From assembly GCA_937886445.1 (NCBI GenBank), contig CALGBY010000112.1, forward strand, positions 1 to 19,184: 19,184 nt of DNA, in the 5' to 3' direction. The position numbers and the translations under genes were made by a program. Numbering within the stretch: the stretch's first letter is position 1; every line of letters begins with the position of its first letter. The stretch is from an uncultured Clostridia bacterium. GTDB lineage: Bacteria; Bacillota; Clostridia; Christensenellales; Aristaeellaceae. The notes below the pieces were generated by a model. That model worked only from the letters and a program-made list of their open reading frames with translations, did no database searches and had not been told where the DNA came from. Below, in pieces: positions 1,077 through 14,268 of this stretch.

Positions 1077-1088
1077 TTATGACATAAT
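1077..1088 (+). repeat. attL core (TTATGACATAAT)
   Basis: Exact 12-mer is repeated at 13278..13289. Both copies begin at codon position 3 of the kinase frame. Confidence 0.75.
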
Positions 1089-1102
1089 GTTTCCTAAAGC
1101 TT

Positions 1103-1140
1103 GGGGAAGTGTTGATTTTCAACACTTCCCCTTATTTTTG
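1103..1140 (+). terminator. Rho-independent terminator just inside attL (perfect 13-bp stem, 3-nt loop, T-rich tail)
   Basis: GGGGAAGTGTTGA-TTT-TCAACACTTCCCC (1103..1131) is followed by TTATTTTTG. It also lies just downstream of the int stop on the other strand, where the tail is weaker. Confidence 0.7.
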
Positions 1141-1149
1141 TTACTAACG
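1139..1149 (+). repeat. TGTTACTAACG motif, candidate integrase arm-type site (left arm)
   Basis: The same 11-mer occurs at 13180..13190, with a further TGTTACTA at 13169..13176. It overlaps the int stop codon. Confidence 0.4.
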
Positions 1150-2163
1150 TGTTATTAGTTCAATTGCTTCCTTCAGTTCATCCAGCGTTTTATGGGTATA
1201 AACCCTTTCCCCAACATCCTTTGACTTGTGACCCATCATCAGATCTATGCACTTCTTATTGGCACCAGCAGAATCCAAGCTGGTTCTGAATGTGTGCCGT
1301 GTTTCATGGGGTGTGTGCTGCATCCCAAGATTATTACATGCCTGTGTAAAGTAATCCCTGAAGGTGCCGTCATCCATCGGATCACCGTTTTCATCAGTAA
1401 TCAGATAGGTTGACTTTGGATTGAAACGTGCTTGAACTAATTGAAATATTTTTGAATGGATGGGAACTATCCTGTCTTTTCCGTTTCTTGTTTTAATCCC
1501 ACCGGTCATGGTTCTGTTATTCAGATCAACATGATCTGTTCGTAAGGTTAGAATTTCTGTTATTCGCCAACCGGAATAGATCATGATCAGGATGCAGTCA
1601 ACCCATGGATCAGAAACATGCTTCCAAAGAAGTTCCACTTCTTCATCCGTGAAAGGTTGCCGGTCAGAATCTTCAACCGGTGCTGAAGTGGTCAGCTGGG
1701 AATACATAGTCTGGATCACTTCTATTTCCATTGCAAATCTGTCCAGATATCCCCACAAATTCTTGATGGCTGCTTGTGTTGAATATCCGTGTCCACAATT
1801 ATCAATAGTATCCTGCATCTGAAAAGACCTGATAGTTCTGTACTTCAATTCATCCAGCTTGGTGATGTGCTTGTAAGCGGATTTCAGTGAACCTTGAAGG
1901 GATTTTCCAAGCTTTGGAAGAATTGTTTTAGACCATTTTTCAAACAATTCTTTCAGGGTGATGTTCCGGGTATCCACATCATATGGATTCCGGTTGTAAT
2001 CAGCAAGTGCAATCATTCCTTCCTGCTTTGTTGCATAGTACCCAATGACAAGATAAACGGGGTGACCTTTTTCATTCCAGCCGGTTGTCTTTCTGACTAT
2101 GTAAGGTTTCCGTCTGTTACCGGAAAGCTTGACAACTGATCCATATCCGTTTGGATTTTTCAT
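1144..2163 (-). CDS. int: Tyrosine recombinase / phage-type integrase with AP2-like N-terminal DNA-binding domain
   Basis: 339 aa. The N-terminus GSVVKLSGNRRKPYIVRKT resembles the Integrase_AP2 type. The catalytic region has SGWRITE (Arg), HETRHTF (His-x-x-Arg), MGH and VYTH (Tyr). It lies adjacent to the att site. Confidence 0.9.
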   Translation of the reverse strand: MKNPNGYGSVVKLSGNRRKPYIVRKTTGWNEKGHPVYLVIGYYATKQEGMIALADYNRNPYDVDTRNITLKELFEKWSKTILPKLGKSLQGSLKSAYKHITKLDELKYRTIRSFQMQDTIDNCGHGYSTQAAIKNLWGYLDRFAMEIEVIQTMYSQLTTSAPVEDSDRQPFTDEEVELLWKHVSDPWVDCILIMIYSGWRITEILTLRTDHVDLNNRTMTGGIKTRNGKDRIVPIHSKIFQLVQARFNPKSTYLITDENGDPMDDGTFRDYFTQACNNLGMQHTPHETRHTFRTSLDSAGANKKCIDLMMGHKSKDVGERVYTHKTLDELKEAIELITR

Positions 2164-2280
2164 AAGCGCAAAACCTTCTTTTCATGTTGATACGGAAGGT
2201 TGTTAATCCTTATAAAAGGTGGTAAAATAAGAATTGATAGATACCTTCCATTCTTGGGTGTTTGGTGGGTGTTGGTCTGT

Positions 2281-2307
2281 CCGGGGAGAGGTGGTAGCTC
2301 TCCCCGG
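2281..2307. terminator. GC-rich hairpin between the 168-aa gene and int (10-bp stem, loop GTGGTAG)
   Basis: CCGGGGAGAG-GTGGTAG-CTCTCCCCGG is followed on the plus strand by ATTTTTCAT. There is no T tail on the minus strand, so leftward read-through into int is plausible. Confidence 0.5.
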
Positions 2308-2321
2308 ATTTTTCATATTCG

Positions 2322-2828
2322 TCATTTCAAATCAGAATCTATCAGTTCTGGCTTAATACCATCCAGAATAACAGATATAGCGTTGATGATAGATTTTTCT
2401 TCTGTTTTTAGTGCAATGCTGCGCAATTCATAAACAATCATATTTTCAAGTTCTTTATAAACTGTCATTCCATCAGGATCAGAGATTTTTATCATGTTAT
2501 TGTCAGCTTCAAGTTCTTCTTTCCACTCCAAAATATCTTCAGCTGCAACTTCACTTTCAGGGATTTGGAACAACTGATAAGGAATACCATTTTCGTCTTT
2601 CTTCGCTTCAACCGTTTTAGGTTGAACATGAATTCTCTGACAATTAGGACAAACAAACGCATAGAAAAATATGTTCTCCCCAATAGGAAATACCGTTGTG
2701 TTAAAATTCTTATCAGTTACACTTCTCCGATCAATATACCGTTCTGTTTTCTTCCCAGCATCTGCAACGAACAAATTATCTTCATAGATGTTCATAATTA
2801 AACGTGATCTGGCTTCTTTAATTGTCAT
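2322..2828 (-). CDS. Hypothetical protein (168 aa), no recognisable family
   Basis: ORF 2322..2834. The ATG at 2828 has an AAAGGAAG SD 8 nt upstream. It has a single CPNC motif and an acidic C-terminal half. Confidence 0.6.
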   Translation of the reverse strand: MTIKEARSRLIMNIYEDNLFVADAGKKTERYIDRRSVTDKNFNTTVFPIGENIFFYAFVCPNCQRIHVQPKTVEAKKDENGIPYQLFQIPESEVAAEDILEWKEELEADNNMIKISDPDGMTVYKELENMIVYELRSIALKTEEKSIINAISVILDGIKPELIDSDLK

Positions 2829-2876
2829 TCTCAATTCTTCCTTTCTTTTGATTATTCTTTGTTGATTTCTCTTGTT

Positions 2877-3002
2877 CTGACTACCTGACTATAAAATATA
2901 TATATTCTATATTCTTTCTTATGCGTGAAAAAAAATGAAATCATTTTCTTTTTTCCTTACGCAAAGGGTGAAAAACGGGGTTTCAAGTAGTCAGTTAGTC
3001 AG
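2877..3002. repeat. Candidate replication origin: inverted pairs of 7-mer iterons flanking a 96-bp AT-rich spacer
   Basis: CTGACTA c CTGACTA (2877..2891) and its complement TAGTCAG t TAGTCAG (2988..3002) flank the AT-rich stretch TAAAATATATATATTCTATATTC...GAAAAAAAATGAAATCATTTTCTTTTTT. It lies immediately downstream of the primase-helicase stop. Confidence 0.45.
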
Positions 3003-4989
3003 ATTTGATGAAATACTGACAGCGGACACCTTTGAAGGGTTCCCGCCGTAATTGCTTTGTTGAAAAACCGAACCGCTGTTTTATTCCCCGGCTGAAATCC
3101 TTCTGTTCTTTGGGTTCCAGACCAGAAGCAAAACAGAAGGATTTATAATCTGGATATAATCCGGTTGTTTCAACTCTGATCGGTTGCTTCAACAATTGGA
3201 TTTCATCAATGCTACATTCTTCCAGCCATTGAAGCACCGAATCATTTTCAGTTACGAACTGTTTCAAAATCCGTTCACTTTCTTTGGTGGAAATGAAACC
3301 GTTGTTTTCAATCAATGATTTGTAACCTTCAATAGCCATGTTCAGCAGCGTTGACAAGGATTGATCTGAAAGCAGTTTATCCAGAAGGTCAGGATCATAC
3401 CCTTTCACCTTCTGATTGAAAACCTTGTTGAATTCAAAGATAACCGCTCTTCTTTCAATCCCGTCAAAATCATTTGAAAAATCCGGGAAGTTGTTCATTC
3501 CAAAGATCAGTTTTCCGGTATAGATATAATCCTTGATTGTTTCCCGGTACTTCCTTTCAATGGAAATTGGGTCACCAGAAGAAAGGGATTTGAAAATTTC
3601 AGAGGAAAACACTTTCCCTTTCTTTGCATCTGAAAAGATATTTGCTGTTGTGTTTACCAGCGGAGTTAATCCGAACTTATCACCCATGTTTGAAAACTGA
3701 ACGTGTGAAACATTCCGCTTCCCGCAAAAGCTGGATATCAGATTTAGGGCTGTTGATTTTCCGGTTGACGGTTGACCAATCAAGAAGAAGAATTTCTGAT
3801 ACTTCACATGGTTCATCATCAGATAACCTATCATCTGTTTGAACAGTTCAATTTGCTTGAAATCCCTATTGAACCAACTGAATAGGGTTTCTTGCAACAG
3901 TTCATCAGCGGATTCAGGATCATAAAGGGCATTGAATTGCCTGAAGCTGATCCTTTCCGGGTTGTGGGGTTCAAAGGTGAATTCCCCGTTGTCAAATACC
4001 AGAATTCCGTTTCTAACATTGACCGTGTTATCATCTTCAGGAATTTCTTTCCGGGTGATTCCTTTGATGTGTCGGACAACTTCTTTTTCAAAGTTCCCGT
4101 TCAGCTTTGGTTTCATGGTTGTTAGATATTCCGTGATTCTGGATTCATCAAAGGGAAGATAAACCCCGTTTTCATAATCGTACATTGTCCCGTTGACCGT
4201 CATAAGCTGGAAGTGTTCCGCAACTTCATGCGCTACTTCAGAATGTGAAGGGGCGTTGTCCTTTTGGCTTTCCTTCAGCTTGTTCATGGTCTTTTCATTA
4301 AGGATTTCCGCTTTCAGGGTTTCTTCCGGTATTGGATCAGCGAAAACATAACCGTTCATCAGTTCGATAATCTGAAAAGCCTGTTCCACTGAATAACCTT
4401 TCTTCTGAACAAGATGAAACAGATAAGCCCCGATTTTTTGTGTTCTTTTCCCGGAAGGGAAATCAAGGTCAAAGGGCTTGCTATGTAACCCCTGAAGCGG
4501 AAACAGGAAGAAAGGCAATTCATCTACATCATCATTTTCAAGTGATCCCCGGAAGAATTCCCGCTTTACCCTGTTGATCTGAAGGGGGATATGATCATCA
4601 CTTGTTGGAAACTTCCATTCCATCTTTACCCCAACAGGACAATACCAATTCTGTTTGTTCTTTGCTTCAAGGGCTTCCGGTTTCCTGAAGAACAGGTGTT
4701 TTCCGTGTTCCGTTCTGATTCCGTTGTATTTGATATTCAGACTATCCAGTAGCGCAATAACAGCTTCAGACCGTGGCTTTCCTTTGATTGGTTCATCAAT
4801 TTCCCCGGTCTTGTGGTTGTAATCATCAATATCAACCTTCAGGAATTCAGGCTTATAGGAACAACCGTAACTATCCCATCTTGGATTGACTTTAGGATAA
4901 TACTTTCTTGGTGACTGATTAGGTTCAGGATTCTTAAACCCTGCTGGATGCTTTCCGTTGAATTCGATATACTGAACAATCAAAATCAA
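2995..4989 (-). CDS. Replication protein: primase/polymerase N-terminal region fused to a D5/P4-type superfamily-3 helicase domain
   Basis: 664 aa with Walker A GQPSTGKS and a later hydrophobic-DD/E region (ANIFSDAKKG). The size and layout are typical of phage/plasmid P4-family primases and satellite Pri-Rep proteins. The TTG start overlaps the upstream stop by 4 nt, so the start is uncertain. Confidence 0.85.
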   Translation of the reverse strand: MILIVQYIEFNGKHPAGFKNPEPNQSPRKYYPKVNPRWDSYGCSYKPEFLKVDIDDYNHKTGEIDEPIKGKPRSEAVIALLDSLNIKYNGIRTEHGKHLFFRKPEALEAKNKQNWYCPVGVKMEWKFPTSDDHIPLQINRVKREFFRGSLENDDVDELPFFLFPLQGLHSKPFDLDFPSGKRTQKIGAYLFHLVQKKGYSVEQAFQIIELMNGYVFADPIPEETLKAEILNEKTMNKLKESQKDNAPSHSEVAHEVAEHFQLMTVNGTMYDYENGVYLPFDESRITEYLTTMKPKLNGNFEKEVVRHIKGITRKEIPEDDNTVNVRNGILVFDNGEFTFEPHNPERISFRQFNALYDPESADELLQETLFSWFNRDFKQIELFKQMIGYLMMNHVKYQKFFFLIGQPSTGKSTALNLISSFCGKRNVSHVQFSNMGDKFGLTPLVNTTANIFSDAKKGKVFSSEIFKSLSSGDPISIERKYRETIKDYIYTGKLIFGMNNFPDFSNDFDGIERRAVIFEFNKVFNQKVKGYDPDLLDKLLSDQSLSTLLNMAIEGYKSLIENNGFISTKESERILKQFVTENDSVLQWLEECSIDEIQLLKQPIRVETTGLYPDYKSFCFASGLEPKEQKDFSRGIKQRFGFSTKQLRREPFKGVRCQYFIKSD

Positions 4990-5189
4990 TCACCGCTTTC
5001 ATGTACCAGCTTTTCAACAGGAACCTTCAGAACAGAAGCAATCTTTCCGATTGTGGCGGGTTTTCCTTCTTTTCCGTTCATCAGGTTCCGAAGGGTTGCA
5101 TACTGACACCCGGCCTGTTTGGATACCTGAAGCGGATTCAAGCAAGCGTTTGCCATAGCAAGTTCAAGTTTCTGTTTACTAATTTTCAT
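4986..5189 (-). CDS. Small XRE-family HTH protein (Cro-like; first gene of the leftward replication operon)
   Basis: The ATG at 5189 has a GAAAGGAAAG SD. The 67-aa product contains LQVSKQAGCQYATLRNLMNGKEGKPATIGKIASVLKV, which fits an HTH_3-type fold. The upstream extension to 5261 lacks an SD. Confidence 0.75.
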   Translation of the reverse strand: MKISKQKLELAMANACLNPLQVSKQAGCQYATLRNLMNGKEGKPATIGKIASVLKVPVEKLVHESGD

Positions 5190-5265
5190 TTCAATTCTTT
5201 CCTTTCTCTTTTCGTTCCGTGGTAAGGTACTACGCAAGCAAGGGTTATATGAAATTGACAAGGTT

Positions 5266-5350
5266 CAAAAACCGATTGTGTTTAATCGGTAAAAGTATGA
5301 TAGCAGATTGCTAACTATATGTCAACATCAAAAACAGATAGAAAATAATC
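5266..5350 (-). promoter_or_regulatory. Promoter-operator module copy 1 (leftward): TTGACA-17-TATCAT plus the palindrome ACCGATT-N6-AATCGGT at about +1..+20
   Basis: The -35 is at 5320..5325, the -10 at 5297..5302 and the palindrome at 5271..5290. An A/T-rich UP-like tract lies upstream. An ~85-bp near-identical copy is at 6261..6346. Confidence 0.65.
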
Positions 5351-5359
5351 ATTTCATTA

Positions 5360-5389
5360 TTGCCAATTCATCACAAGATATGGTATTTT
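5360..5389 (+). promoter_or_regulatory. Rightward promoter for the repressor gene (TTGCCA-18-TATTTT with TG extension)
   Basis: TTGCCA is at 5360..5365 and TGgTATTTT at 5381..5389. It is back-to-back with the leftward promoter. Confidence 0.45.
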
Positions 5390-5412
5390 ATTATTTTGTG
5401 GGGGTGGTTACT

Positions 5413-5766
5413 TTGTCATTTGCGGAAAGATTGCGGATGTACCGGAAGCAAGCACACCTAACACAAAAGCAGTTAGGTGAAAAATCTGGTTGTGCTGAAA
5501 TCAATATCAGGCAGTATGAAGCGGGAAAATATACACCGAAACCAGAAGCAGGAAAAAAGATTGCTGATGCTTTGGGGGTTTCTGTTTCTGATCTTTATGG
5601 TTGGGATGAAGGTTCAGCAGCTTTAGCAACGGAAGTTAAAGCCATTGAACAGCGGGAAAAGGATTTGTTGCGGATTTTCCGGGGGTTGAAGTCTGAAGGT
5701 CAGGAAAGGGCAATTGATTATTTAACTGATCTATCAGAAATTCCGAAATACCAAAGAGAAGAATAA
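5413..5766 (+). CDS. XRE-family HTH repressor (CI/Stl-like candidate master repressor), divergent from the cro-like gene
   Basis: LSFAERLRMYRKQAHLTQKQLGEKSGCAEINIRQYEAGKYTPKPEAGKKIADALGVSVSDLYGW is a classic HTH_3. It has a ~55-aa C-terminal extension. The start is taken as TTG 5413 after GGGGGTGG. The ATG at 5380 and the 5308 start lie upstream of the predicted promoter. The start is uncertain (GTG 5398/5404 are possible). Confidence 0.75.
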   Translation: MSFAERLRMYRKQAHLTQKQLGEKSGCAEINIRQYEAGKYTPKPEAGKKIADALGVSVSDLYGWDEGSAALATEVKAIEQREKDLLRIFRGLKSEGQERAIDYLTDLSEIPKYQREE

Positions 5767-5772
5767 AAAACA

Positions 5773-5800
5773 CCCGCTGAAGGTGGTAGGCTTCAGCGGG
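5773..5800. terminator. Bidirectional rho-independent terminator between the convergent repressor and 137-aa genes
   Basis: CCCGCTGAAG-GTGGTAGG-CTTCAGCGGG is preceded by AAAAAACA and followed by TTTCATCGTTT. Confidence 0.7.
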
Positions 5801-5828
5801 TTTCATCGTTTGGGGTTTAAGGTCTGAT

Positions 5829-6242
5829 TCAGGCAGCTTCAACAGCCGTTATCTGAATCGGTTCTGATTTCTTCCCGGTTAGGTTGACCGTGATAACCGC
5901 CCCGAAATCCTTCAGAAGATAGCTGATTGTCTGAAGGGCGGTTTCAAACTGCTTGAAGGAAACGAATTTCAGCCGGGGGAACTTGTCACCTTCCAGAAAC
6001 TTCATGGTTTCAACGGGGAATGAATTGTTCAGGCCATCAATCAGGCTGTTCATGATTTCCGAAACGTGGTAAACATCGAAGCTGTTCATGATCCGGGTTG
6101 CAACCGTCACCATTTCCCCGGATTCATCCACCATCTTCAGAACAAAAACCGGGGTAAGCTTTTCAGAAGCATTAGCCAAAGAAACGGAATACAGAGAAAC
6201 CTTGTGTTCACCATTGGTAAGGGCTGTTTTGATCATCAACAT
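5829..6242 (-). CDS. Hypothetical protein (137 aa), no recognisable family
   Basis: The ATG at 6242 has a GAAGGAAGG SD 8 nt upstream. It is driven by promoter-operator copy 2. It forms a monocistronic unit ending at the 5773..5800 terminator. Confidence 0.65.
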   Translation of the reverse strand: MLMIKTALTNGEHKVSLYSVSLANASEKLTPVFVLKMVDESGEMVTVATRIMNSFDVYHVSEIMNSLIDGLNNSFPVETMKFLEGDKFPRLKFVSFKQFETALQTISYLLKDFGAVITVNLTGKKSEPIQITAVEAA

Positions 6243-6260
6243 GATAGATACCTTCCTTCT

Positions 6261-6346
6261 CAAAATTCCGATTGCTTTCAATCGGTAAATGTATGATAAC
6301 AGATTGCAAACTATATGTCAACATCAAAAACAGATAGAAAATAATC
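6261..6346 (-). promoter_or_regulatory. Promoter-operator module copy 2 (leftward): TTGACA-17-TATCAT plus CCGATT-N6-AATCGG
   Basis: The -35 is at 6316..6321, the -10 at 6293..6298 and the palindrome at 6268..6285. In the 67-bp core (6280..6346 vs 5284..5350) I count 3 mismatches. Confidence 0.65.
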
Positions 6347-6354
6347 TGTTTTCC

Positions 6355-6384
6355 TTGCGTTTTCCCTTCAAATCATGTTATAAT
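6355..6384 (+). promoter_or_regulatory. Rightward promoter of small-ORF cassette A (TTGCGT-18-TATAAT with TG extension)
   Basis: TTGCGT is at 6355..6360 and TGtTATAAT at 6376..6384. Geometry relative to the duplicated module matches that of the repressor promoter in copy 1. Confidence 0.55.
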
Positions 6385-6390
6385 TAGTAA

Positions 6391-6488
6391 AAGTCGATTG
6401 TTCCCCCCCTTTTAGGCAGCGGGAAACAATGTGTGCTTCCAAAGCAATTTCACCCCTGTTGATTCGGCATAGCAACAGGGGGCTTTTT
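6391..6488 (+). ncRNA. Candidate ~95-nt structured leader or small RNA (two hairpins; the second is an intrinsic terminator)
   Basis: Hairpin 1 spans about 6397..6430 (ATTGTT..CCC / GGG.AACAAT). Hairpin 2 is CCCCTGTTG-N11-CAACAGGGG (6453..6481) followed by GCTTTTT. It lies between the promoter and the RBS of ORF A. Confidence 0.35.
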
Positions 6489-6514
6489 CATAAGATCAGA
6501 AAGGAAGGGTTGTC

Positions 6515-6658
6515 ATGATCCCGGAATGGTTTGAAGAATGGGTGATTTTGGAAACTGATAATTGGTACCTGAAACCGGATGCACCAAAGGAAATTCAGGA
6601 AGAATTTTCCCGCTGGATGAAAGAGCATGAAGGAAACGAAAATCTGATTGTGGATTGA
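6515..6658 (+). CDS. Small Trp-rich acidic protein A (47 aa), unknown function; paralog of 12627..12773
   Basis: It is below the ORF-track cutoff. The ATG at 6515 has an AAAGGAAGG SD. The product is MIPEWFEEWVILETDNWYLKPDAPKEIQEEFSRWMKEHEGNENLIVD. It is about 50% identical to a second copy on the opposite strand, which argues for real coding. Confidence 0.55.
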   Translation: MIPEWFEEWVILETDNWYLKPDAPKEIQEEFSRWMKEHEGNENLIVD

Positions 6659-6681
6659 CGATAATAACGGGTTAGTAACAG

Positions 6682-6724
6682 AAAAACCGGATTGATGTTA
6701 AAAACAAAGCATCCTTCCGGTTTT
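6682..6724. terminator. Bidirectional terminator shared by ORF A (+) and terS (-)
   Basis: The stem CCGGATTGATG...CATCCTTCCGG (6687..6720, 2-nt internal mismatch) is flanked by AAAAA upstream and TTTT downstream. Confidence 0.65.
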
Positions 6725-6780
6725 ATATAATATGCTGTAATGTTTGCTCAACCGTTTCCTCTAAATGAAGTTGACAAAAA

Positions 6781-7272
6781 TTAATCCTCTAATAGATCTG
6801 ATCCGCTGATCACAATCGGTTGATCAATAGTTAACTTGTATTTATCAGAAAAGATCCCCAAATGTCTACCCAGAAGTTCCAAGGCACGAACTTTATCAGG
6901 GAAACGCATTTCTATTTCTTCACCTTCACCGTTTTTCATTGGGATTTTTTTCACTCTAATTCCGGAAATTGTAGATAAATCTTCAGTTGAAACATCGGGG
7001 AGAATATGACCTGTATTCAGATCAACAACATCAGAAGGATTCTGAAAAGCAACTTTTGCTAGTTCCTTTATTACCCGATCTGCTGTTACTTCAGTTCTCT
7101 TTGACTGCTCTTCCATTAAACTTTGGATTTTTTCCAAAACGTTATCATAGGTTAACAGTCTTGCAGCTTGCTGAGTAGCGGTTTTCGGATTATAACCGGC
7201 ACGAATAGCAGCTTTTTTACCATTCATGTCAACTATGTATTCCTCACAAAATCTTTTCTGACGGATATTCAT
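6781..7272 (-). CDS. terS: Terminase small subunit (Terminase_2 / P27-like family)
   Basis: The ATG at 7272 has an AGGAGAAAG SD. MNIRQKRFCEEYIVDMNGKKAAIRAGYNPKTATQQAARLLTYDNV is the characteristic N-terminal HTH signature of this family. No large subunit gene follows. Confidence 0.85.
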   Translation of the reverse strand: MNIRQKRFCEEYIVDMNGKKAAIRAGYNPKTATQQAARLLTYDNVLEKIQSLMEEQSKRTEVTADRVIKELAKVAFQNPSDVVDLNTGHILPDVSTEDLSTISGIRVKKIPMKNGEGEEIEMRFPDKVRALELLGRHLGIFSDKYKLTIDQPIVISGSDLLED

Positions 7273-7328
7273 GTAAATCTTTCTCCTATCCTGTGTAACA
7301 CCGATATATATCAATATATAAAGTGATT

Positions 7329-7820
7329 TCAGACAACTGAAGCATATTCTTCTATCTTTCCTTCCTTTTCTAGAAGGTCAAAAATTGCTAGTAAGCCTTT
7401 TTCATAATACCTGAATGATGTTTTTTCACTCACATCGTCAAAATCAAGTATTACTGACCAAGGAAGAAGGTGAATGTGTTTTAAGCAAAGATAGATTCGA
7501 CTGTTTCTATCCTGAACCATTTCAATTGCTTTCCTGACTTCAATCTGCATATCAACCAGTTCTGCAAGTTTATCTTCAGCGAGATTTTCAAGCTGCTCTT
7601 TTTCTTGAAAAAATTTTTCGTAGTAAGCTTCTTGTTTCTTGGATGTTTGTACAGAAGGTTTATCCAATTGTATTGGTGGTAAACTGTACATTTTTTCATT
7701 TGCCTTTTTTATCTCTCCGATCAATGATTCTATTTCCAAGTCTGATCTTTCGTATCTGGAAAGAAACGACCGGGCTATTCGCTTTTTCTGCATTGGATCA
7801 TAGTTGGTTGTTCGAAGCAT
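7329..7820 (-). CDS. Putative late-gene transcriptional activator with a sigma-70 region-4-like C-terminal HTH (RinA/ArpU/DUF1492-type position)
   Basis: 163 aa. The C-terminus RIYLCLKHIHLLPWSVILDFDDVSEKTSFRYYEKGLLAIFDLL resembles a region-4 HTH. It sits immediately upstream of terS, as late activators do in Firmicute siphophages. It has an AGAGGTGA SD. Confidence 0.5.
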   Translation of the reverse strand: MLRTTNYDPMQKKRIARSFLSRYERSDLEIESLIGEIKKANEKMYSLPPIQLDKPSVQTSKKQEAYYEKFFQEKEQLENLAEDKLAELVDMQIEVRKAIEMVQDRNSRIYLCLKHIHLLPWSVILDFDDVSEKTSFRYYEKGLLAIFDLLEKEGKIEEYASVV

Positions 7821-7833
7821 TATTAATCACCTC

Positions 7834-8004
7834 TTACAAATGAAACATTATCTTAAAGTTTTCTACTTCTTTCCGATAGTTATCAGTCATTCTTCGGAGT
7901 GTCTGAGTTCTTACATTTGAATTTCTGGCTGAAAGAATCAATACTTTTTCTTTTTTTAACCGTTCGTATTCAAATTGACGCAGCTGCTTTTCAACCTTTC
8001 GCAT
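7834..8004 (-). CDS. Small basic hypothetical protein (56 aa)
   Basis: It is below the ORF-track cutoff. The ATG at 8004 has an AAAGGAAG SD. The product is MRKVEKQLRQFEYERLKKEKVLILSARNSNVRTQTLRRMTDNYRKEVENFKIMFHL. It fills an otherwise empty gap in a tightly packed operon. Confidence 0.45.
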   Translation of the reverse strand: MRKVEKQLRQFEYERLKKEKVLILSARNSNVRTQTLRRMTDNYRKEVENFKIMFHL

Positions 8005-8018
8005 TGACAATACTTCCT

Positions 8019-8207
8019 TTACTGCTGTTCTGATTGTTCCATCAGAAGATCACGGAAAAAATCATCGGGATTTCCAAAAACAAGCCTTGGATTCAGATTC
8101 AACGGTTTTCTTTCGTTTTCATTCTGTTTCTGGATACGACTATATTTTGGTGATATATATTCAGATCCATATGAGATTTGATATACTTCTTCTTTTCTGG
8201 TTTTCAT
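8019..8207 (-). CDS. Hypothetical protein (62 aa)
   Basis: The ORF is in the operon orientation, but I see no clear SD upstream of the ATG at 8207. Confidence 0.35.
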   Translation of the reverse strand: MKTRKEEVYQISYGSEYISPKYSRIQKQNENERKPLNLNPRLVFGNPDDFFRDLLMEQSEQQ

Positions 8208-8223
8208 GATTGTTTAGAAAATC

Positions 8224-8257
8224 ATACCGGGTTTGTAGTAAATCACAAACCCGGTAT
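8224..8257 (-). terminator. Perfect 13-bp hairpin after the 251-aa gene (terminator or attenuator)
   Basis: ATACCGGGTTTGT-N8-ACAAACCCGGTAT. On the minus strand it is followed by GATTTTCT, a short T tract, so termination may be partial. Confidence 0.5.
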
Positions 8258-8271
8258 AGTCAGTTCATGAT

Positions 8272-9027
8272 TTACTTCAAAATAGTTTCAATCAATTCTC
8301 GGTCAGAGATAACATGATTCTGAAACAGACTGGAAAATTGGTTTTCCAGAACTGAATACATCTTCCCGACTTGAATCATCCATTCTTCACATGAAAGGAA
8401 ACTGTAAGGAATCCTATCCTGCATATAAATAACCGGGGAATCATTAACAGACGAAGCGTAAAAATCATAGTTGGCTGCATTGGTGAGGATGTCTTTTATT
8501 CGATCAAAGTAATTCAGATAATCAACAACGTTTGTATATACACCGGATTTTTCTTCAATCATAATCAGAACTTCATTACTATACTGATCAACCCCACCAA
8601 GGGATCTTGTTTTAGAATCAGCCTTGACACGGATAACATCCAGTACAGTTTTTGTACTTCGATATGATCCTGATAATGGTTGAAGGATATTTTTAAGATT
8701 CACAGTATCCAAGGAAGAATCCAGCATATCAACAACACGAAGAGCATTCTGAATATCAACGGAATGATCTTTGTTATCTTCCGGGAAAGTAATTTCAAAA
8801 TCCTTGCAGAATTTATCAACAATTTCCCGGAAAAGCTTACTCATGTTTTTACAGCTTTCCTTAAGTTCAGAGAAGATGACCTGTTTCTTCTCTTCTTTTC
8901 CTTTCGGTGACCATCTCCAATCAGCCATCAATTGATTCAGGGAATCACCTTTTTCTTTAATCGTTTTTGCAAAGAGAGCATTCATAGTACGAACCTGATC
9001 TGCATATGTTTTGTAATTAGTTGTCAT
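8272..9027 (-). CDS. Hypothetical protein (251 aa), apparently helical, no recognisable family; co-transcribed with the tape measure gene
   Basis: The ATG at 9027 has an AAGGGTGG SD 8 nt upstream and lies 30 nt after the tape-measure stop. It does not resemble the beta-rich distal tail proteins that normally follow a tape measure gene. Confidence 0.65.
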   Translation of the reverse strand: MTTNYKTYADQVRTMNALFAKTIKEKGDSLNQLMADWRWSPKGKEEKKQVIFSELKESCKNMSKLFREIVDKFCKDFEITFPEDNKDHSVDIQNALRVVDMLDSSLDTVNLKNILQPLSGSYRSTKTVLDVIRVKADSKTRSLGGVDQYSNEVLIMIEEKSGVYTNVVDYLNYFDRIKDILTNAANYDFYASSVNDSPVIYMQDRIPYSFLSCEEWMIQVGKMYSVLENQFSSLFQNHVISDRELIETILK

Positions 9028-9057
9028 TATGTTTTCCACCCTTTCTTTTTGTATTAA

Positions 9058-12000
9058 TTATAAGTAAATCCCTTCCGCAACGATTTCCAACCGTTCTGCA
9101 ACCTTGTCTTCCAACTGGGAAATAATGCCGTCAATATCCATGTCAGAACTGATCGTGTTATTGTTGTTCATTTCAACCTTCACTTCAGCTGTTGTGAAGT
9201 GATTGATCACTTCACGTTCAGCCAGTGACCGGATCTTCTGAACATCAGAATCAGACAATTTCACAGCATCAGAAGCATCTTCTATCAACTGTGCTTGTTC
9301 CATGGCAGCAAAGTCACCGATCAAAGACCATGTAGAATCATCCCATGCTTTGGTAATGCCAGTGGAAGCGCTGACAACAGCCTTTTCCATATCATACCGA
9401 CCATCATTCACGGCATTGACATAACCGGCAACCATCATGGATCCAGACCAATAGGTTTCCTTAGACGGGGAATGAATACCGGCAGCAGCATTGGCAGCAG
9501 CCAAAGCATTTCTGACAACGGCAGCAGCAGCTGCTGCAACCGCACCGGATCCGGAATTGATACCCTGTACAAAACCGGCATCAATCATTGCACCGGTTGT
9601 AGCTGCAACACCAACAACCATTCCAGCAGTGGACTGAATACCGATTGCCAAACCTTCATTCAAGAAACCACCGGCAGCAATAGTATAGGTAGACGGGGAA
9701 GCAACACCCAAGGCACTGAGGATAGCACTTACCGTTGCGGATGCCATAGCGGAACCGGATGCAGCCGGTTGACTGGCACTTCCGTCAATACCACCGGCAA
9801 GACCGGCAGACAAGTAAGCACCCCATTCAGCAGGATTTTCACCGGCTGCTTCCAGCGCTTGTTTGAAATCCAATGTTTTGATGATTCCTTCCATGGCACC
9901 GGAAAGACCGGACATATCCATGTTTTCACTGATTTCAGGATTTTCAAGCATGGATTTAAGCAAGCTGGAAAGAATCGGATTATCAGATACAGTCTGAAGA
10001 TCATTAGAAAGTGCTTCCATGATCTGTTTTTCGTAATCATCCATGAATAAATCGACATTGCCTAATTGACCGACACCAAAGAGATCATAGAAGGATTCAA
10101 AACTATCAAATCCACCAAATTGATCAGCAAAGAATCCACTATCCCATGCAGATTTTGCAATAGCCTTAGTATAAGCTGCATACTGTTGATCAAACATTTC
10201 ATTGTATGTACCGTCAGCATTATAGGTACTCAAATTACTCCGTTCAACAAACATCCGCATTACATCATAATCACCAGCTGCCTTTTCTAAAGCAGATGCA
10301 GCTTCCGGATACTGGGAAGCCATACCATTGAAAAGTTCACTGATTCTTTGGGTGTATTCAGTGCGAAGTGAATCAAGTTCTGTACTAAGGGAAGTTCTCA
10401 GGGTGTCATATTCCAGCCTTGCAGCTTCAGCAGCAGCGGTATCACCGGCAGCAGCTGCTTCAGCAATCTTCCGTTCAGCTTCCTGCATTTTGGCAGCGTA
10501 TTCAGAAGCAACCTGATCAATTGCAGCATTGGATTTTGCTGCTTCATAAGCAACGGCAGTTCCAAACATGTCAGTGGTGCCAAAACCATAAGCAACAGCG
10601 GTTGAAGTATTTTCATAATCTTGATTTATTTCACCGGGTTTCAAACCGTCCAATGCTGCTTGAACTTCTGCTATCTTACCCATGGTGCTGTTATAAGTTC
10701 CGTCATCAATCGTGATCGGAATATCCTTGGCACCTTCCAGAATTCTGTCCAGATCGGAAGGAATAGATGCAATGGCTGTACCGATAGCAGCCACGGCACC
10801 GGCAATCAGCATAGCCTGACCAACGGGTGTATTCACCACAAAATTGGTAACCGCACCAAACGCTTTTGTCAGCGTTTCAGAATTCTTGATTCCTTTGATT
10901 GTTTTCAAAGCGGTACTTACAGTTTTCACGGCAGTACCGGCAATGGTCAAAGTCGGTCCAAGTGCAGCCAAACCACCAAGGAAGGTGATCAAAGCAGTCT
11001 GATCTTCTTCAGACATTTTGTTGAATCCATCAAGGATGTTATTCACAATATCCAGTGCCGGTTGAAGCGCTTGGGCAAGATTTTCACCGAATTCAGCCAT
11101 GGTATTATGAAGCTTGTTTCCAAGCATACCGGTCTGACTTTCGGTTGTTTCCATTTGCTTGTTGAATTCTTCAGTAGCTGCTGTTCCCTGATCGTAAGCA
11201 TCCACAGCAGCCTGAATAGCGGATGCAAACAGTTCCGGTCTGGATGCCATTGCAGCAATCAGATTTGACTCACGGATTTCTTTCAGACCCATCTTGTCCA
11301 AGACGGCAAGAATGGATTCACCACCGTTTTCACCCATCTTGCTAAGTCCAACAAAGAAGTTGGACATGGCATCAGCAGGATTCTTGTTCCAGTCATCAAT
11401 GAACTGCTGTGAAGTTTTTCCGGATGCTTCAGCAAACTGATCCATCAGCAGCCAACTGTCACCCATGGATTTGACGGCATCCACCGTCATGTTCATGCTT
11501 GTGGCGAGATCAACCAGATCTTCTTTCTTGGCACCGTCAACCCATTGACTGAATTCAAGACCAGATCCAAATTCCATACCGGCAGCGGAAAGTTTCTGCT
11601 GTGCCTGACCACCAACTTCAGCAGCCATCTGGAATTGTTTAATCAATTTTGCAGCAGCTGAACCACCGGCTTCCGGATTGATACCAACAGCCCGGAAAGC
11701 GGTTGCCATACCAAGAATTTCAGGTGTAGATATCCCGGCAAGGTGTGCAGCGGAAGCCATTCTGTTACCAAGGGCAAGGATCTGGTCTTCAGTGGCATTG
11801 AAGTTGTTGCCCAGATCAACAACGGCAGAGGAAAAAGCCCCAATGTTGGCAACTCCACCTTCAGTGATGTTCAGGAAAGAAGCAACATCCTGAGCGCCAC
11901 TTTCACCAGAAATGTGCTGATCAGTAGCATACTGAAGTTTGGCATATTCAGTCATGAAAGCTTCCATGTCATTGATAGCCACACCCAAGTTACCACCGGT

Positions 12001-12402
12001 TTGAGCAATTCCCATCAGGTCTACATAGGACATGGGGGTTGTTTCGGACAGTTCCAAAGCGGTTTCTTTCAGCGCTTGATACTGGGCATCTGTTCCTTCA
12101 ACCGTCTTGGTCATTCCGACAAAGGCAGCTTCATAATCAGAGAAATCACCAAACATACTTTTGCCAAGGGCAATCAATGGGGCAGTAATGGCAAGTGTCA
12201 TGGTCTTACCAACCTTCTGCATCCGTTCCCCGGCAGCTTCAGCTTTGGCAATGAAATTATCAAAGCTGAAGCCGTCAATGGTTCCCTGTTCGTCAGCTAC
12301 ACCTTTAAGGGCTGATTTCATGGAATTGATATTCTCTTCAATGGTAGCCAGCTTTCCGGACATCTTGTCAACAAGTTCAATCGTTGAAGATATCGTTGCC
12401 AT
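9058..12402 (-). CDS. Phage tail tape measure protein (TP901-family core region)
   Basis: 1114 aa. The N-terminal region is coiled-coil-like. The segment ...LSETTPMSYVDLMGIAQTGGNLGV...LGNRMASAAHLAGIS... is typical of the TP901 TMP core. There are central hydrophobic segments (ALITFLGGLAALGPTLTIAG, AMLIAGAVAAIGTAIASI). The C-terminal region is Ala/Gly-rich and contains the GIHSPSKETYWSG motif common in Firmicute TMPs. Confidence 0.85.
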   Translation of the reverse strand: MATISSTIELVDKMSGKLATIEENINSMKSALKGVADEQGTIDGFSFDNFIAKAEAAGERMQKVGKTMTLAITAPLIALGKSMFGDFSDYEAAFVGMTKTVEGTDAQYQALKETALELSETTPMSYVDLMGIAQTGGNLGVAINDMEAFMTEYAKLQYATDQHISGESGAQDVASFLNITEGGVANIGAFSSAVVDLGNNFNATEDQILALGNRMASAAHLAGISTPEILGMATAFRAVGINPEAGGSAAAKLIKQFQMAAEVGGQAQQKLSAAGMEFGSGLEFSQWVDGAKKEDLVDLATSMNMTVDAVKSMGDSWLLMDQFAEASGKTSQQFIDDWNKNPADAMSNFFVGLSKMGENGGESILAVLDKMGLKEIRESNLIAAMASRPELFASAIQAAVDAYDQGTAATEEFNKQMETTESQTGMLGNKLHNTMAEFGENLAQALQPALDIVNNILDGFNKMSEEDQTALITFLGGLAALGPTLTIAGTAVKTVSTALKTIKGIKNSETLTKAFGAVTNFVVNTPVGQAMLIAGAVAAIGTAIASIPSDLDRILEGAKDIPITIDDGTYNSTMGKIAEVQAALDGLKPGEINQDYENTSTAVAYGFGTTDMFGTAVAYEAAKSNAAIDQVASEYAAKMQEAERKIAEAAAAGDTAAAEAARLEYDTLRTSLSTELDSLRTEYTQRISELFNGMASQYPEAASALEKAAGDYDVMRMFVERSNLSTYNADGTYNEMFDQQYAAYTKAIAKSAWDSGFFADQFGGFDSFESFYDLFGVGQLGNVDLFMDDYEKQIMEALSNDLQTVSDNPILSSLLKSMLENPEISENMDMSGLSGAMEGIIKTLDFKQALEAAGENPAEWGAYLSAGLAGGIDGSASQPAASGSAMASATVSAILSALGVASPSTYTIAAGGFLNEGLAIGIQSTAGMVVGVAATTGAMIDAGFVQGINSGSGAVAAAAAAVVRNALAAANAAAGIHSPSKETYWSGSMMVAGYVNAVNDGRYDMEKAVVSASTGITKAWDDSTWSLIGDFAAMEQAQLIEDASDAVKLSDSDVQKIRSLAEREVINHFTTAEVKVEMNNNNTISSDMDIDGIISQLEDKVAERLEIVAEGIYL

Positions 12403-12481
12403 TCCGTTTCACCGTCCTTTCTGTATAAGATTCGGGGGAATTCTGCATAAAATAGATATTATATTGAATAATCCCATGAAA

Positions 12482-12510
12482 ATTATACCACAAAATGTTA
12501 GCAAATGCAA
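12482..12510 (-). promoter_or_regulatory. Near-consensus promoter directly upstream of the tape measure gene (TTGCAT-17-TATAAT with TG extension)
   Basis: On the minus strand the -35 is at 12505..12510 and the -10 at 12482..12487, preceded by TGg. It lies about 73 nt upstream of the TMP ATG and just downstream of the cassette B terminator. Confidence 0.6.
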
Positions 12511-12601
12511 ACGAAACCATTTATTTTCAACGGTTTCAGCCATTTCAAGCGGGACTGAATTTTATTCATTTTATTCAATTTTTCAATGAAATGATTGAAA
12601 T

Positions 12602-12627
12602 GAAAAAACCGGGCTGCTACACCCGGT
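12602..12627 (-). terminator. Rho-independent terminator of small-ORF cassette B
   Basis: The minus strand reads ACCGGG-N8-CCCGGT followed by TTTTTT. The stem overlaps the ORF B stop codon. Confidence 0.65.
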
Positions 12628-12773
12628 CAATCAACACATATTCCCGTTGTTTCGGTATCGTGAAGCTTCATCCATTCTTCAAATTCCTTCCGGTGTTCCT
12701 CATGGGTTCCCGGCTTCAGATGCCAATTATCCGTTTCAAAGATAACCCATTCAGGGAACCAATCAGGAAACAC
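12627..12773 (-). CDS. Small Trp-rich acidic protein B (48 aa), paralog of 6515..6658
   Basis: The GTG at 12773 has a GGAAGGGG SD 7 nt upstream and an in-frame stop just upstream. The product is VFPDWFPEWVIFETDNWHLKPGTHEEHRKEFEEWMKLHDTETTGICVD. The shared pattern is P-[DE]-WF-x-EWVI-x-ETDNW-x-LKP...EF..WMK.H...VD. Confidence 0.5.
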   Translation of the reverse strand: MFPDWFPEWVIFETDNWHLKPGTHEEHRKEFEEWMKLHDTETTGICVD

Positions 12774-12807
12774 GATTTCACCCCTTCCAGATCATCAGAA
12801 AGAATAT

Positions 12808-12857
12808 CCCTTCCCCAAGGCTTGATTGTGCCTAATCAACCAACTTTAGGGGAAGGG
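12808..12857 (-). promoter_or_regulatory. Leader hairpin of cassette B containing an anti-SD-like arm
   Basis: CCCTTCCCC (12849..12857) pairs with GGGGAAGGG (12808..12816), with an inner TTGATT/AATCAA stem. A T-rich ATATTCTTTCT follows. The same CCCTTCC could instead pair with the SD GGAAGGG at 12782..12788. Confidence 0.4.
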
Positions 12858-12901
12858 TGCCGAAAAAGAAACCAAAAATGAAAACCCGATGCCATACGGA
12901 C

Positions 12902-12930
12902 ATTATACACCTTTTCCCGGACACAGTAAA
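12902..12930 (-). promoter_or_regulatory. Promoter of cassette B (TTTACT-17-TATAAT)
   Basis: On the minus strand the -35 is at 12925..12930 and the -10 at 12902..12907. Confidence 0.45.
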
Positions 12931-13130
12931 CCCCCGGTTGGCTGGAAACCAGGGGTTGCCTTCAGGCTTCACTTCCTTCAGGATGAACAAATTGTATTAC
13001 CTTCAGAAAGCCCCGTCAATATAGCCCAGCCTTTCAGATTTGCGATTCTGGCGGGGTCTGATCGTTTTCCCCGGTATTCGCCCATCTGAACCGGAAAGGG
13101 GCTAAAAAGGGCTGTTTTTGAGCCAAAGAA

Positions 13131-13157
13131 GGAACCGGGCAAAAAACACCCGGTTCC
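13131..13157. other. Perfect 9-bp GC-rich hairpin in the right att arm
   Basis: GGAACCGGG-N9-CCCGGTTCC. On the minus strand it is followed by TTCTTTGG, a weak tail. It may insulate the element from transcription entering from the right junction, or it may be a structural att element. Confidence 0.35.
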
Positions 13158-13168
13158 GGTCTGATCCT

Positions 13169-13190
13169 TGTTACTACCCTGTTACTAACG
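13169..13190 (+). repeat. Tandem TGTTACTA motifs at 11-bp period (candidate arm-type integrase sites, right arm)
   Basis: TGTTACTAccc TGTTACTAACG. The second copy is identical over 11 bp to 1139..1149 in the left arm, in the same orientation. Confidence 0.4.
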
Positions 13191-13277
13191 GGGGAGTTTT
13201 CCCCGGTCTGAAAAAAGCCTCTGAAGCTTGAAACGGTTGAACTTTCAGCCCTTTCAATACGTTGAAATTGAACAAAT

Positions 13278-13289
13278 TTATGACATAAT
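13278..13289 (+). repeat. attR core (TTATGACATAAT)
   Basis: It is an exact copy of 1077..1088. The flanking bases differ on both sides. Confidence 0.75.
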
Positions 13290-14268
13290 AACAGATGCGA
13301 ACGGACAGATCACGAAGCAAGACGCGAGGGGCATCATAGATCCGGAAGAACATCAGGTCGAAGAGATGGTGCGGCAGATCCTCTCAGGTGGAAGAATGAC
13401 CGGCAATATCAGGCCCTTCAAATATGGGACGGCCATCACACAAGATGGTACACGCATTATTTTAGTGGACCAGTCATTCCAGCTGCAGTTTATCTATTCT
13501 AACCTTCGCGGTGCATTACTTGTATCAGTTGCCTGTTTGCTGCTCATGTTCATCATTTTACAACCGATTGCCCGTAGGGTTGCAAAGGCAATAATGGCAG
13601 CACAGGAACGACAGCGCCAGTTTATGACCAATGCAAACCATGAAATGAAAACGCCTGTCGCGGTCATTCAATCAAACATCGAAGCAATGGAAATGATCAA
13701 CGGTCAGAACAAATGGAGCCGGAATGTCCACCAGCAGACTTTGCGTTTGAATTATATGATTTCTCAGTTGCTCCTTCTTGAACGTATGGGAGAATACACA
13801 TACCAAAGTCCAAGAAAACCGGTCAGTATCGGCGTTCTTGTAAAGACAATTACGGAAGATATGGGTGAACTGCTGGCGCAAAGAAACATTCGTATTGATT
13901 ATGACGTCAGCGATCAATGTGTGATCTGTGGTTATGAAGAAGCCTTAATTCAACTGATCAGAATATTGGTAGATAATGCAGCCCGTTACGCATCCGAAAA
14001 CTCATTGCTGTCCATTTCTGCTATTCGACATGGCCGAACTTCAATCATTCGCTTTTTGAATCAAGTTGAACATTTACCGGACTGCGCGCCGGATCTGCTT
14101 TTTGAGCGATTTCATCGAGGTGGGATTGCACGAAAAACGGGCGATGTTGGCTGCGGGATTGGATTGTCAGCGGCATCAAGTATTGTTTCAATGCACCACG
14201 GAGAAATCAATGCCTCATATCCGGATGAACACAGCTTTCAAATTACAATCAGGCTTCCAACCAAGTAA
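13278..14268 (+). pseudogene. 3' portion of the sensor histidine kinase gene (rest of the extracytoplasmic domain, TM2, HisKA, HATPase_c)
   Basis: ...LLVSVACLLLMFIILQPI is TM2. The H-box is FMTNANHEMKTPV, the N-box is LVDNAARYA, and the G-boxes are GCGIGLSAASSIV. The ORF-track start at 13228 (TTG) is element DNA with no SD, and an in-frame stop lies at 13222. Confidence 0.85.

Follow-up and report, generated by a model that had tools for sequence, protein, structure and literature searches.

The 19,184-nucleotide stretch of DNA analyzed here (contig CALGBY010000112.1 of assembly GCA_937886445.1, from an uncultured Clostridia bacterium; hereafter the window) hosts a 12,201-bp satellite of the phage-inducible chromosomal island (PICI) type. 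At the right end of this satellite lies a gene for a tape measure protein (TMP), in an expression unit owned by the satellite and directly ahead of the gene for a 251-aa orphan protein. Sequence comparison indicates that this TMP is functional and full length, an allele of the one found in contractile-tailed phages of roughly 47 kb. We describe the anatomy of this module, the mobile unit that carries it, its conservation in related satellites, the selection acting on it, its phage origin and the exchange of its alleles with phages. Satellite-encoded TMPs are already known, and the chief interest of the present one is its modular position and its orphan partner.

The satellite carries an intact tape measure gene in its own expression unit

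An earlier note on this DNA, made by reading the letters alone, had described an intact 1114-aa open reading frame (ORF) of the TP901 tape measure type. Profile searches confirm this description, with matches to PF10145 (E 3.6e-12, 47 bits, cutoff 33.2), to TIGR01760 tape_meas_TP901 (E 2.6e-25, 89.2 bits, cutoff 28.8) and to a dozen TMP families of PHROG (best E 1.7e-51). The promoter that had been read upstream of the gene, TTGCAT-17-TATAAT with a TG extension, is also present: the pattern TTGCA-N15-TGNTATAAT has a single occurrence in the window and none in 200 shuffles. Next to it lies an inverted repeat, GAAACCGTT..AATGGTTTC, which may be a regulator site and whose conservation is clear in one related satellite (L004) and weaker in another (L003). 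The stretch from the TMP start to the right border of the element (13289) contains a single ORF, of 48 aa, which has its own terminator.

The gene for the 251-aa protein begins with an ATG at 9027, 30 nt past the TMP stop as the note had stated, and is preceded by the ribosome-binding site (RBS) AAAGGGTGG. A hairpin follows this gene, as had also been noted, with a calculated stem of 15 bp. It has only a weak T-tract (ATTTTCT) and overlaps with a promoter-like site. Where the transcription unit ends on its 3' side is therefore less certain than first assumed, and transcription may read through into the downstream genes for a 62-aa protein, a 58-aa protein, the DUF1492 protein and the small terminase subunit (TerS). 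L003 and L004 have GACCGGGG...CCCCGGTC hairpins at the equivalent place after the 251-aa gene.

No other gene of a tail module accompanies the TMP. When all proteins of the closest phage were searched against the window with tblastn, nothing but the TMP and a 46-aa gene, present twice, was returned, in agreement with the earlier claim that the usual tail genes are missing. Genes for tube, sheath, chaperone or baseplate left no trace, either in this search or in blastn of the window against the contigs of helper-type phages. A tail assembly chaperone (TAC) was likewise not found in the ORFs of the element by Pfam or PHROGs, and the phage TAC, its frameshift region included, gave nothing in tblastn.

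The mobile unit that includes this module has sharp borders. In-silico excision of exactly 12,201 bp between the two copies of the 12-bp repeat TTATGACATAAT restores an uninterrupted ORF for a 404-aa histidine kinase, which sits after its own response regulator gene. All genes from 1144 to 12773 lie within a single mobile element, of which the TMP gene alone occupies 27% (Table 1). The TMP and its partner form a discrete module inside this satellite, and the vicinity is free of tail-gene remnants.

A single tail gene with nothing further around it could also be the leftover of a decayed prophage tail module, and the earlier note had proposed to recognize such decay by the loss or pseudogenization of the pair in related copies or by adjacent remnants of tail genes. 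Neither is seen. No piece of tube, sheath, TAC or baseplate genes is left, the excision is clean, and the relatives described below are contigs of 12.4-12.8 kb, read as circular, with the same module. We find decay hardly credible, and it is already refuted as far as sequence data can do so.

Table 1. Positions of the satellite, its genes and the elements of the tape measure module in the window
Feature	Position	Strand	Remarks
attL copy of the 12-bp direct repeat TTATGACATAAT	1077..1088	.	Within host histidine kinase gene
Whole PICI-like satellite, one repeat copy included	1089..13289	-	12,201 bp
Tyrosine integrase	1144..2163	-	PF00589 E 2.5e-23; phrog_1
Primase/helicase (D5_N, DUF5906, Pox_D5)	2995..4989	-	phrog_864, E 4.7e-92
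Small cro-positioned ORF	4986..5261	-	No Pfam match; divergent from cI-like gene
cI-like helix-turn-helix repressor	5308..5766	+	HTH_3 E 1e-12; regulator pair spans 4986..5766
Second paralog (47 aa) of helper-type small gene	6515..6658	+	Homology to 46-aa phage gene
Small terminase subunit TerS (packaging hijack gene)	6781..7314	-	PF03592 (Terminase_2) E 4.4e-37
DUF1492 / phrog_36 transcription-regulator-like protein	7329..7820	-	Pfam, PHROG
Hairpin 3' of 251-aa gene, possible terminator	8223..8258	-	15-bp stem, -22.8 kcal/mol, z = -5.7
Gene for 251-aa conserved orphan protein	8272..9027	-	Predicted mostly helical; constant partner in the module
TP901-type TMP gene, intact, 1114 aa	9058..12402	-	PF10145, TIGR01760, PHROG
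Mosaic patch in TMP, aa ~715-800 (~85 aa)	10005..10250	-	~18% identical to L008 phage TMP
Extended -10 promoter TTGCAT-17-(TGg)TATAAT, with TGn extension	12482..12510	-	Sequence pattern; kept in related satellites
Inverted repeat GAAACCGTT..AATGGTTTC, putative regulator site	12512..12538	-	Abuts -35 hexamer
Terminator insulating TMP promoter from upstream small ORF	12607..12628	-	Own terminator of the 48-aa ORF
48-aa ORF, homolog of 46-aa helper-phage gene	12627..12773	-	Phage gene lies between MuF and scaffold genes
attR copy of the 12-bp direct repeat TTATGACATAAT	13278..13289	.	TGTTACTA repeats just inside, at 13169 and 13180

The tape measure gene was exchanged with phages

The closest homolog of the TMP is P0016, a 1109-aa protein encoded on the myophage contig L008, with 93% aa identity. 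At the nucleotide level the two genes are 97.9-98.9% identical across the ORF, and the homology extends from 2 nt before the ATG to 12 nt before the stop, with unrelated flanks on both sides. The GC content of the TMP gene (0.46) equals that of the phage, as compared to 0.39 in the rest of the satellite and 0.36 in the 251-aa gene. When a short mosaic patch is left out, the satellite gene and the closest phage allele differ by 42 synonymous and 16 non-synonymous changes, which corresponds to a ratio of non-synonymous to synonymous substitution rates (dN/dS) of 0.11.

In the L008 phage, the TMP gene is embedded in a complete structural region. The order of genes is portal, MuF, scaffold, capsid, gp10-like protein, tail terminator, sheath and tube, followed by Phage_TAC_5, TMP, a 303-aa protein, YQBQ, baseplate J and gp48, and finally by fibre, a reverse transcriptase gene (RVT_1), holin and lysin. 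We derived the tail-module context of the TMP homologs from the myophage contigs L008, L009, L010 and L055-L057: homologs with 93%, 69% and 50-52% identity have the Phage_TAC_5 gene on one side and the YQBQ/baseplate J genes on the other, and the copy in the window is without such context. We presume that the helpers belong to this lineage of roughly 47-kb contractile-tailed phages with a reverse transcriptase gene beside the tail fibre. Isolated relatives of the helper-type phage are absent from INPHARED, where the best TMP matches reach ~31% identity over 41% of the query.

The RVT_1 gene occurs just 3' of the tail-fibre gene in four contigs of these phages (L008 20072-21295, L010 20527-21741, L011 10695-11909 and L057 20033-21247). 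This arrangement suggests a diversity-generating retroelement that acts on the receptor-binding protein.

An independent instance of this allele exchange is seen in a second satellite. The 952-aa TMP of L004 shares 90% aa and 91.7% nt identity with a 951-aa phage TMP that precedes baseplate genes, and the homology ends 7 nt before the stop. The backbones of L003 and L004 are clearly related (76% identity for the 251-aa protein, 78% for TerS and 82% for the integrase), yet their TMPs, of 1109 and 952 aa, can be aligned only over the N-terminal ~470 aa. Satellite TMPs are nearer to phage TMPs than to one another. The simplest reading of these sequences is that the TMP position is ancestral to the satellites and that its content has been repeatedly overwritten by recombination with phage alleles. 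We also searched for further satellites among the contigs of 12-14 kb with TMP matches, and the two that we checked (P0024 and P0033) turned out to be phage fragments.

In length, each satellite TMP nearly matches its closest phage allele: the satellite TMPs measure 1114 and 952 aa, and the phage alleles 1109 and 951 aa, respectively. A role of the satellite gene in altering tail length, which the earlier note had considered, is therefore unlikely.

The only sharp departure from the L008 allele is the mosaic patch. Here the satellite protein shares 60-77% identity with other TMPs of the family, and three of these are encoded in phage tail modules (P0020/L057, P0024/L055 and P0033/L056). As judged from these alignments, the patch is an instance of ordinary TMP mosaicism. 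A satellite-specific 'resistance patch', suggested by the 55-65% identity to satellite L003, was considered and rejected because the same type is found in bona fide phages. At least two patch types circulate among the phages of this group. The patch recalls the short TMP regions that govern sensitivity to the tail assembly blockers Rta and Tab.

These data bear on the possibility that the satellite carries a spare TMP, or a spare neck protein in its relatives, for situations in which the allele of the helper is blocked, either by a tail-assembly blocker in the donor cell or by TMP-directed superinfection exclusion in the recipient. A diverged stretch of ~85 aa separates the satellite protein from its closest phage allele within a mosaic group of TMPs, and satellite alleles have been swapped repeatedly. 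A bypass would also agree with the specificity of Rta and Tab, which maps to short TMP regions, and with the insensitivity to Rta of the TMPs of the PICI-like elements (PLEs) of Vibrio cholerae. Nevertheless, the patch type is not specific to satellites, and we identified no exclusion or blocker gene in this analysis. Overall, we judge a bypass of TMP-directed blocks to be quite unlikely.

Related satellites keep the promoter and the orphan gene around an exchangeable position

Two further satellites were recovered over what appears to be their entire length. L003, a Logan contig of 12.8 kb, has ends that overlap by 30 nt; we read this as the k-1 overlap left by the assembler on a circular molecule, assuming k = 31. 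L004 is a 12.4-kb contig in which the integrase gene directly precedes the TMP module, and it is taken as the circular form. Both share the same order of integrase, TMP module, 251-aa homolog, small ORFs, DUF1492-like gene, TerS, regulators and primase. Since the integrase gene comes directly before the TMP module in these contigs, the TMP belongs to the mobile unit. In three fragments (L005, L006 and L012), the C-terminus of a TMP is again found ahead of a 251-aa homolog. L003 and L004 also differ in their replication modules (DUF5906 primase and VapE-like, respectively), and the satellite family is therefore mosaic beyond the TMP position.

The promoter, a leader of ~75 nt and the RBS are kept wherever the upstream region is at our disposal, which is the case for four satellites. 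Each of them has a single occurrence of the promoter pattern, and the other 53 fetched loci, most of which are phage contigs, have none. Both genes of the module evolve under purifying selection, with dN/dS of 0.08-0.20 for the 251-aa gene and of 0.23-0.29 between satellite TMPs. The pair that the earlier note had singled out is conserved in relatives; it is not an obligate pair, as the TMP can be replaced.

Such replacement is seen in a Clostridia metagenome-assembled genome from roe-deer omasum (L001/L002/L007). Here the same promoter and leader precede a 130-aa HK97-gp10-like tail-completion/Neck1 gene (phrog_5, E 1.4e-17), whose product is 45% identical to a helper-type phage protein, and the gene for a 248-aa homolog of the orphan protein comes next. 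In L013, a head-tail adaptor (phrog_615, E 5.8e-36) lies ahead of a 253-aa homolog, and the cluster of this subfamily has 102 members. From these comparisons, the constant parts of the module are the promoter, the leader and the 251-aa protein, and the variable part is one low-copy protein of the helper neck or tail lumen.

Downstream of the 253-aa homolog, L013 also contains a TerS-like ORF of 106 aa (1364-1684; Terminase_2 E 4.5e-4) and, at 1719-2123, one of 134 aa that weakly matches Phage_TAC_3 (E 0.0027). The latter is a hint, at the level of sequence, that some family members have a chaperone-like gene.

The exchangeable position may indicate a general module for swapping components, composed of a conserved promoter, a variable position and the 251-aa gene. 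With it, a family of Gram-positive satellites would capture, by ORF-precise recombination, the low-copy part of the helper's DNA conduit that is needed (tape measure, tail-completion protein or head-tail adaptor), and the 251-aa protein would steer assembly to the satellite copy or block that of the helper. We regard this broader explanation as possible but doubtful. If true, the substitution of neck and tail-lumen parts would be a modular and evolvable strategy of satellites, which would also act as a reservoir that shuffles TMP alleles among phages.

Alternatively, helper DNA might have been captured repeatedly beside the att end as a neutral by-product, without any function for the satellite. 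The very recent phage origin of the TMP gene (98-99% nt identity), its phage-like GC content and the different helper genes at the same position in relatives are what one would expect in this case. Drift of this kind is however difficult to reconcile with ORF-precise junctions, with a satellite promoter, leader and RBS conserved in four diverged satellites, and with the capture of complete single ORFs only, never of fragments or neighboring genes. Moreover, every copy is intact (dN/dS 0.11-0.29), and the gene takes up more than a quarter (27%) of a 12-kb genome that is bound by a packaging limit. We therefore consider a neutral origin improbable.

The 251-aa protein is a conserved orphan

For the constant partner of the exchangeable position, we found 14 close homologs with 42-50% identity among 5.8 billion sequences. 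When 1.84 billion representatives were searched with the family profile, 48 clusters (50% identity) were obtained, whose members are all 225-273 aa long and without informative names. The family was not found in IMG/VR or INPHARED, and the search for further genomic contexts yielded only one genome of GTDB and three short metagenome contigs.

The AlphaFold2 (AF2) model of the protein (pLDDT 80.8) predicts a helical bundle with one beta hairpin, in line with the largely helical character supposed in the earlier note. No fold match was obtained with Foldseek against PDB (best E 0.12) or BFVD (best E 0.2), and no match in Pfam, PHROGs or NCBIfam, nor by profile search against PDB sequences. The family hidden Markov model did not match any ORF of the helper-type phages, and hhalign comparisons of the family with the scaffold, the 303-aa post-TMP protein and the TAC of the helper were negative (probability of 0.7% for the TAC). 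PADLOC also returned no match, in a 2023 release that predates blockers of the Tab/Tai/Rta type.

Blockers of this type are the basis of a further explanation, in which the module would serve interference or defense. The TMP made by a resident satellite without its chaperone, together with the 251-aa protein, would disturb the assembly of the tail or neck of the helper or of a related invading phage. It could do so by titrating the TAC or the hub of the helper or by blocking a phage component, with fewer infectious phages as the outcome, as known for Tab, Tai and Rta. Several features are in favor of such a role. No activator is obviously required by the extended -10 promoter, which a predicted terminator insulates from upstream transcription, the satellite has no TAC, and the occupants of the position (TMP, tail completion protein and adaptor) are all low-copy nodes of assembly. 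In addition, TMP-targeting blockers exist (Tab and Rta), and the vicinity of the att site is where PICIs carry defense cargo (PMC11364771). On the other hand, this full-length TMP is nearly identical to a working phage allele and evolves under purifying selection, with no mark of a poison subunit. The 251-aa protein has no PADLOC match and is far larger than Rta (80 aa), a comparison by size and not by sequence with Rta, Tab or Tai, and a satellite that blocks tails would block its own transfer unless its own copy escapes. We consider this explanation unlikely.

The satellite TMP may be used in chimeric tails

The explanation that we favor, tentatively and as somewhat short of probable, is that the satellite expresses a helper-compatible TMP that would be chaperoned by the TAC of the helper and built into the tails of particles with satellite DNA, and that the 251-aa protein acts at the same node. 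Both the entry of the TMP into tails and whatever the 251-aa protein may do are inferred from the anatomy and conservation of the module and from the precedent of the PLEs.

Recombination within the ORF repeatedly swaps the satellite TMP for phage alleles, leaving the promoter, the RBS and the downstream gene of the satellite in place. According to this model, in the presence of an active helper, the TMP made by the satellite would be chaperoned by the helper tail assembly chaperone and assembled with the hub, tube and sheath of the helper into tails carrying satellite DNA. The resulting chimeric tails would be of the kind shown experimentally for the Vibrio PLEs. The transfer of the satellite would in this way be freed from the supply and the integrity of the TMP of the helper itself. 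The 251-aa protein would take part in the same step of tail or neck assembly, for example by favoring the satellite copy or by restraining that of the helper.

Several points weigh against the use of the TMP in chimeric tails. A tail assembly chaperone, which the PLEs encode, is missing from the satellite. The near-identity of its TMP to a phage allele offers no obvious way to sort the satellite TMP into satellite particles, and the phage with the 93% match may not be the actual helper of this host. Relatives hold a tail-completion or a head-tail adaptor gene at the same position, so that an explanation specific to the TMP is incomplete. The strong sigma-70-like promoter, which may be constitutive, could fit defense or interference better.

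If the module is functional, it would provide a compact two-gene system on how satellites bias the assembly of tail and neck, and satellites would take part in the mosaic evolution of the TMP genes of phages.

Gene content and borders of the satellite

Apart from the structural gene, the element is a PICI-type satellite by all criteria that can be assessed from sequence. It is integrated and flanked by direct repeats, its 12,201 bp are within the usual range of ~10-15 kb, the integrase is found at one end, and it has a repressor/regulator pair, its own primase-replicase and TerS. For induction, replication and packaging in dependence on a helper, the evidence is indirect and consists of the relatives' circular contigs of 12.4-12.8 kb. 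We found no genes for capsid, portal, large terminase subunit, tube, sheath or lysis in the satellite. It nevertheless departs from the rule that PICIs have no virion structural or lysis genes, as it includes the intact TMP and two copies of a small gene from the head module of the helper.

These two copies are paralogous ORFs of 47-48 aa with the consensus motif PEWFxEWVxxETDNWHLKP, and they represent a second family of helper-derived genes in the satellite. Counterparts of the 46-aa gene are located at 3012-3152 in L008, 3020-3160 in L009, 2701-2841 in L010 and 6012-6152 in L004.

An 84-nt direct repeat is present in two copies with 90% identity (5267-5350 and 6263-6346), each containing a minus-strand TTGACA-17-(TG)TATCAT promoter along with a small palindrome. 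The first separates the cro-positioned ORF from the cI-like gene, and the second is upstream of a 150-aa gene (5829..6281), facing the plus-strand 47-aa ORF. The repeat looks like a duplicated operator/promoter region that places two divergent units under common control. An Rfam scan of the window returned zero matches.

The motif TGTTACTA occurs four times in the window (1139, 6673 on the minus strand, 13169 and 13180), as compared to 0.27 expected. It is paired just inside attR, single just inside attL and present once more downstream of TerS, a layout like that of the arm-type sites of integrases. Sites of the same type are found in the relatives at ~3540-3560 in L003, ~10030-10050 in L004 and 9160-9182 in L002 (two copies of GTTAGTAAC), and in L003 and L004 paired copies lie 3' of the 251-aa gene.

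The insertion splits the gene of a two-component sensor kinase within the extracellular sensor domain (853-1088 and 13290-14268). An in-frame TTG at 13228, contributed by the right end of the element, could permit the expression of the C-terminal kinase fragment. Genes for an HlyD-like protein and a MacB-type ABC transporter lie downstream of the split kinase and are probably under the control of the interrupted two-component system.

Comparison with known systems

To our knowledge, until 2025-26 satellites were thought to use the tails of their helpers unchanged, and PLEs then showed their own TMP in chimeric tails. The earlier note knew of no described satellite that brings only its own tape measure; TMP genes of satellites have already been reported in PLEs, PLE-like elements, some capsid-forming PICIs (cf-PICIs) and EPIPs (PMC12987554, PMC12822802). 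All PLEs of Vibrio cholerae encode both a TMP and a TAC, and the PLE TMP is found in chimeric tails otherwise made of parts of the phage ICP1 (PMC12987554). It is incorporated into virions and required for transduction (PLE1/4/11, phage ICP1; Mathur et al., Nature 2026, PMC12987554). PLE11 also encodes the 80-aa Rta, which blocks the ICP1 TMP, and putative tmp genes are present in PLE-like elements and some cf-PICIs (PMC12987554).

The element described here resembles the PLEs in its satellite-encoded TMP and in a contractile-tailed helper as the presumed source of tube, sheath, baseplate and fibres. Of the marks of PLE-type chimeric tails that can be read from sequence, it has the satellite tmp gene and lacks the TAC adjoining it. 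It differs in that PLE TMPs are ~20% identical to that of ICP1, whereas the TMP studied here is 93% identical to a phage allele at the amino acid level and is swapped by recombination. PLEs have a TAC, and PLE11 also a baseplate hub, whereas here there is neither TAC nor hub. Finally, we deal with an unrelated PICI-like satellite of a Gram-positive anaerobe, in which the position can hold a neck gene instead.

Our results would extend the idea of satellite TMPs to PICI-like satellites of the classical kind, an unrelated family from Clostridia of gut and rumen, with three features beyond those reported for PLEs. These are a TMP without an accompanying chaperone, its near-identity to phage alleles through recombination that is precise to the ORF borders, and a fixed position, always beside the same orphan protein, at which relatives have a tail-completion or head-tail adaptor gene.

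EPIP satellites of Mycolicibacterium also have a TMP gene, together with capsid genes (PMC12822802). EPIPs encode capsid, scaffold, adaptor and stopper and form their own capsids, whereas here TerS is combined with a single tail or neck gene. In addition, the tails of EPIPs differ in length from those of the helper, whereas here the TMP lengths match those of the phage alleles.

Tail assembly is also acted upon by proteins of other mobile elements, namely the blockers Tab of phage JBD26 (PMC10884400), Tai of PICIs, prophages and P4-like satellites (PMC11364771) and Rta of PLE11. The target of Tab and Rta is the TMP, and each of the two comes with a means of avoiding self-inhibition. The 251-aa protein and the satellite's own TMP could conceivably follow this model. 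The two differ in size (80 aa for Rta, 251 aa here), and the 251-aa protein was compared to such systems through PADLOC models rather than through the sequences of the blockers.

A parallel among classical PICIs is Ccm of SaPIbov5, a homolog of one structural protein of the helper that reprograms helper assembly (PMC8569155). Ccm is a diverged capsid homolog that alters the size and shape of the capsid (PMC8569155), whereas the satellite in the window encodes a tail protein nearly identical to a phage allele.

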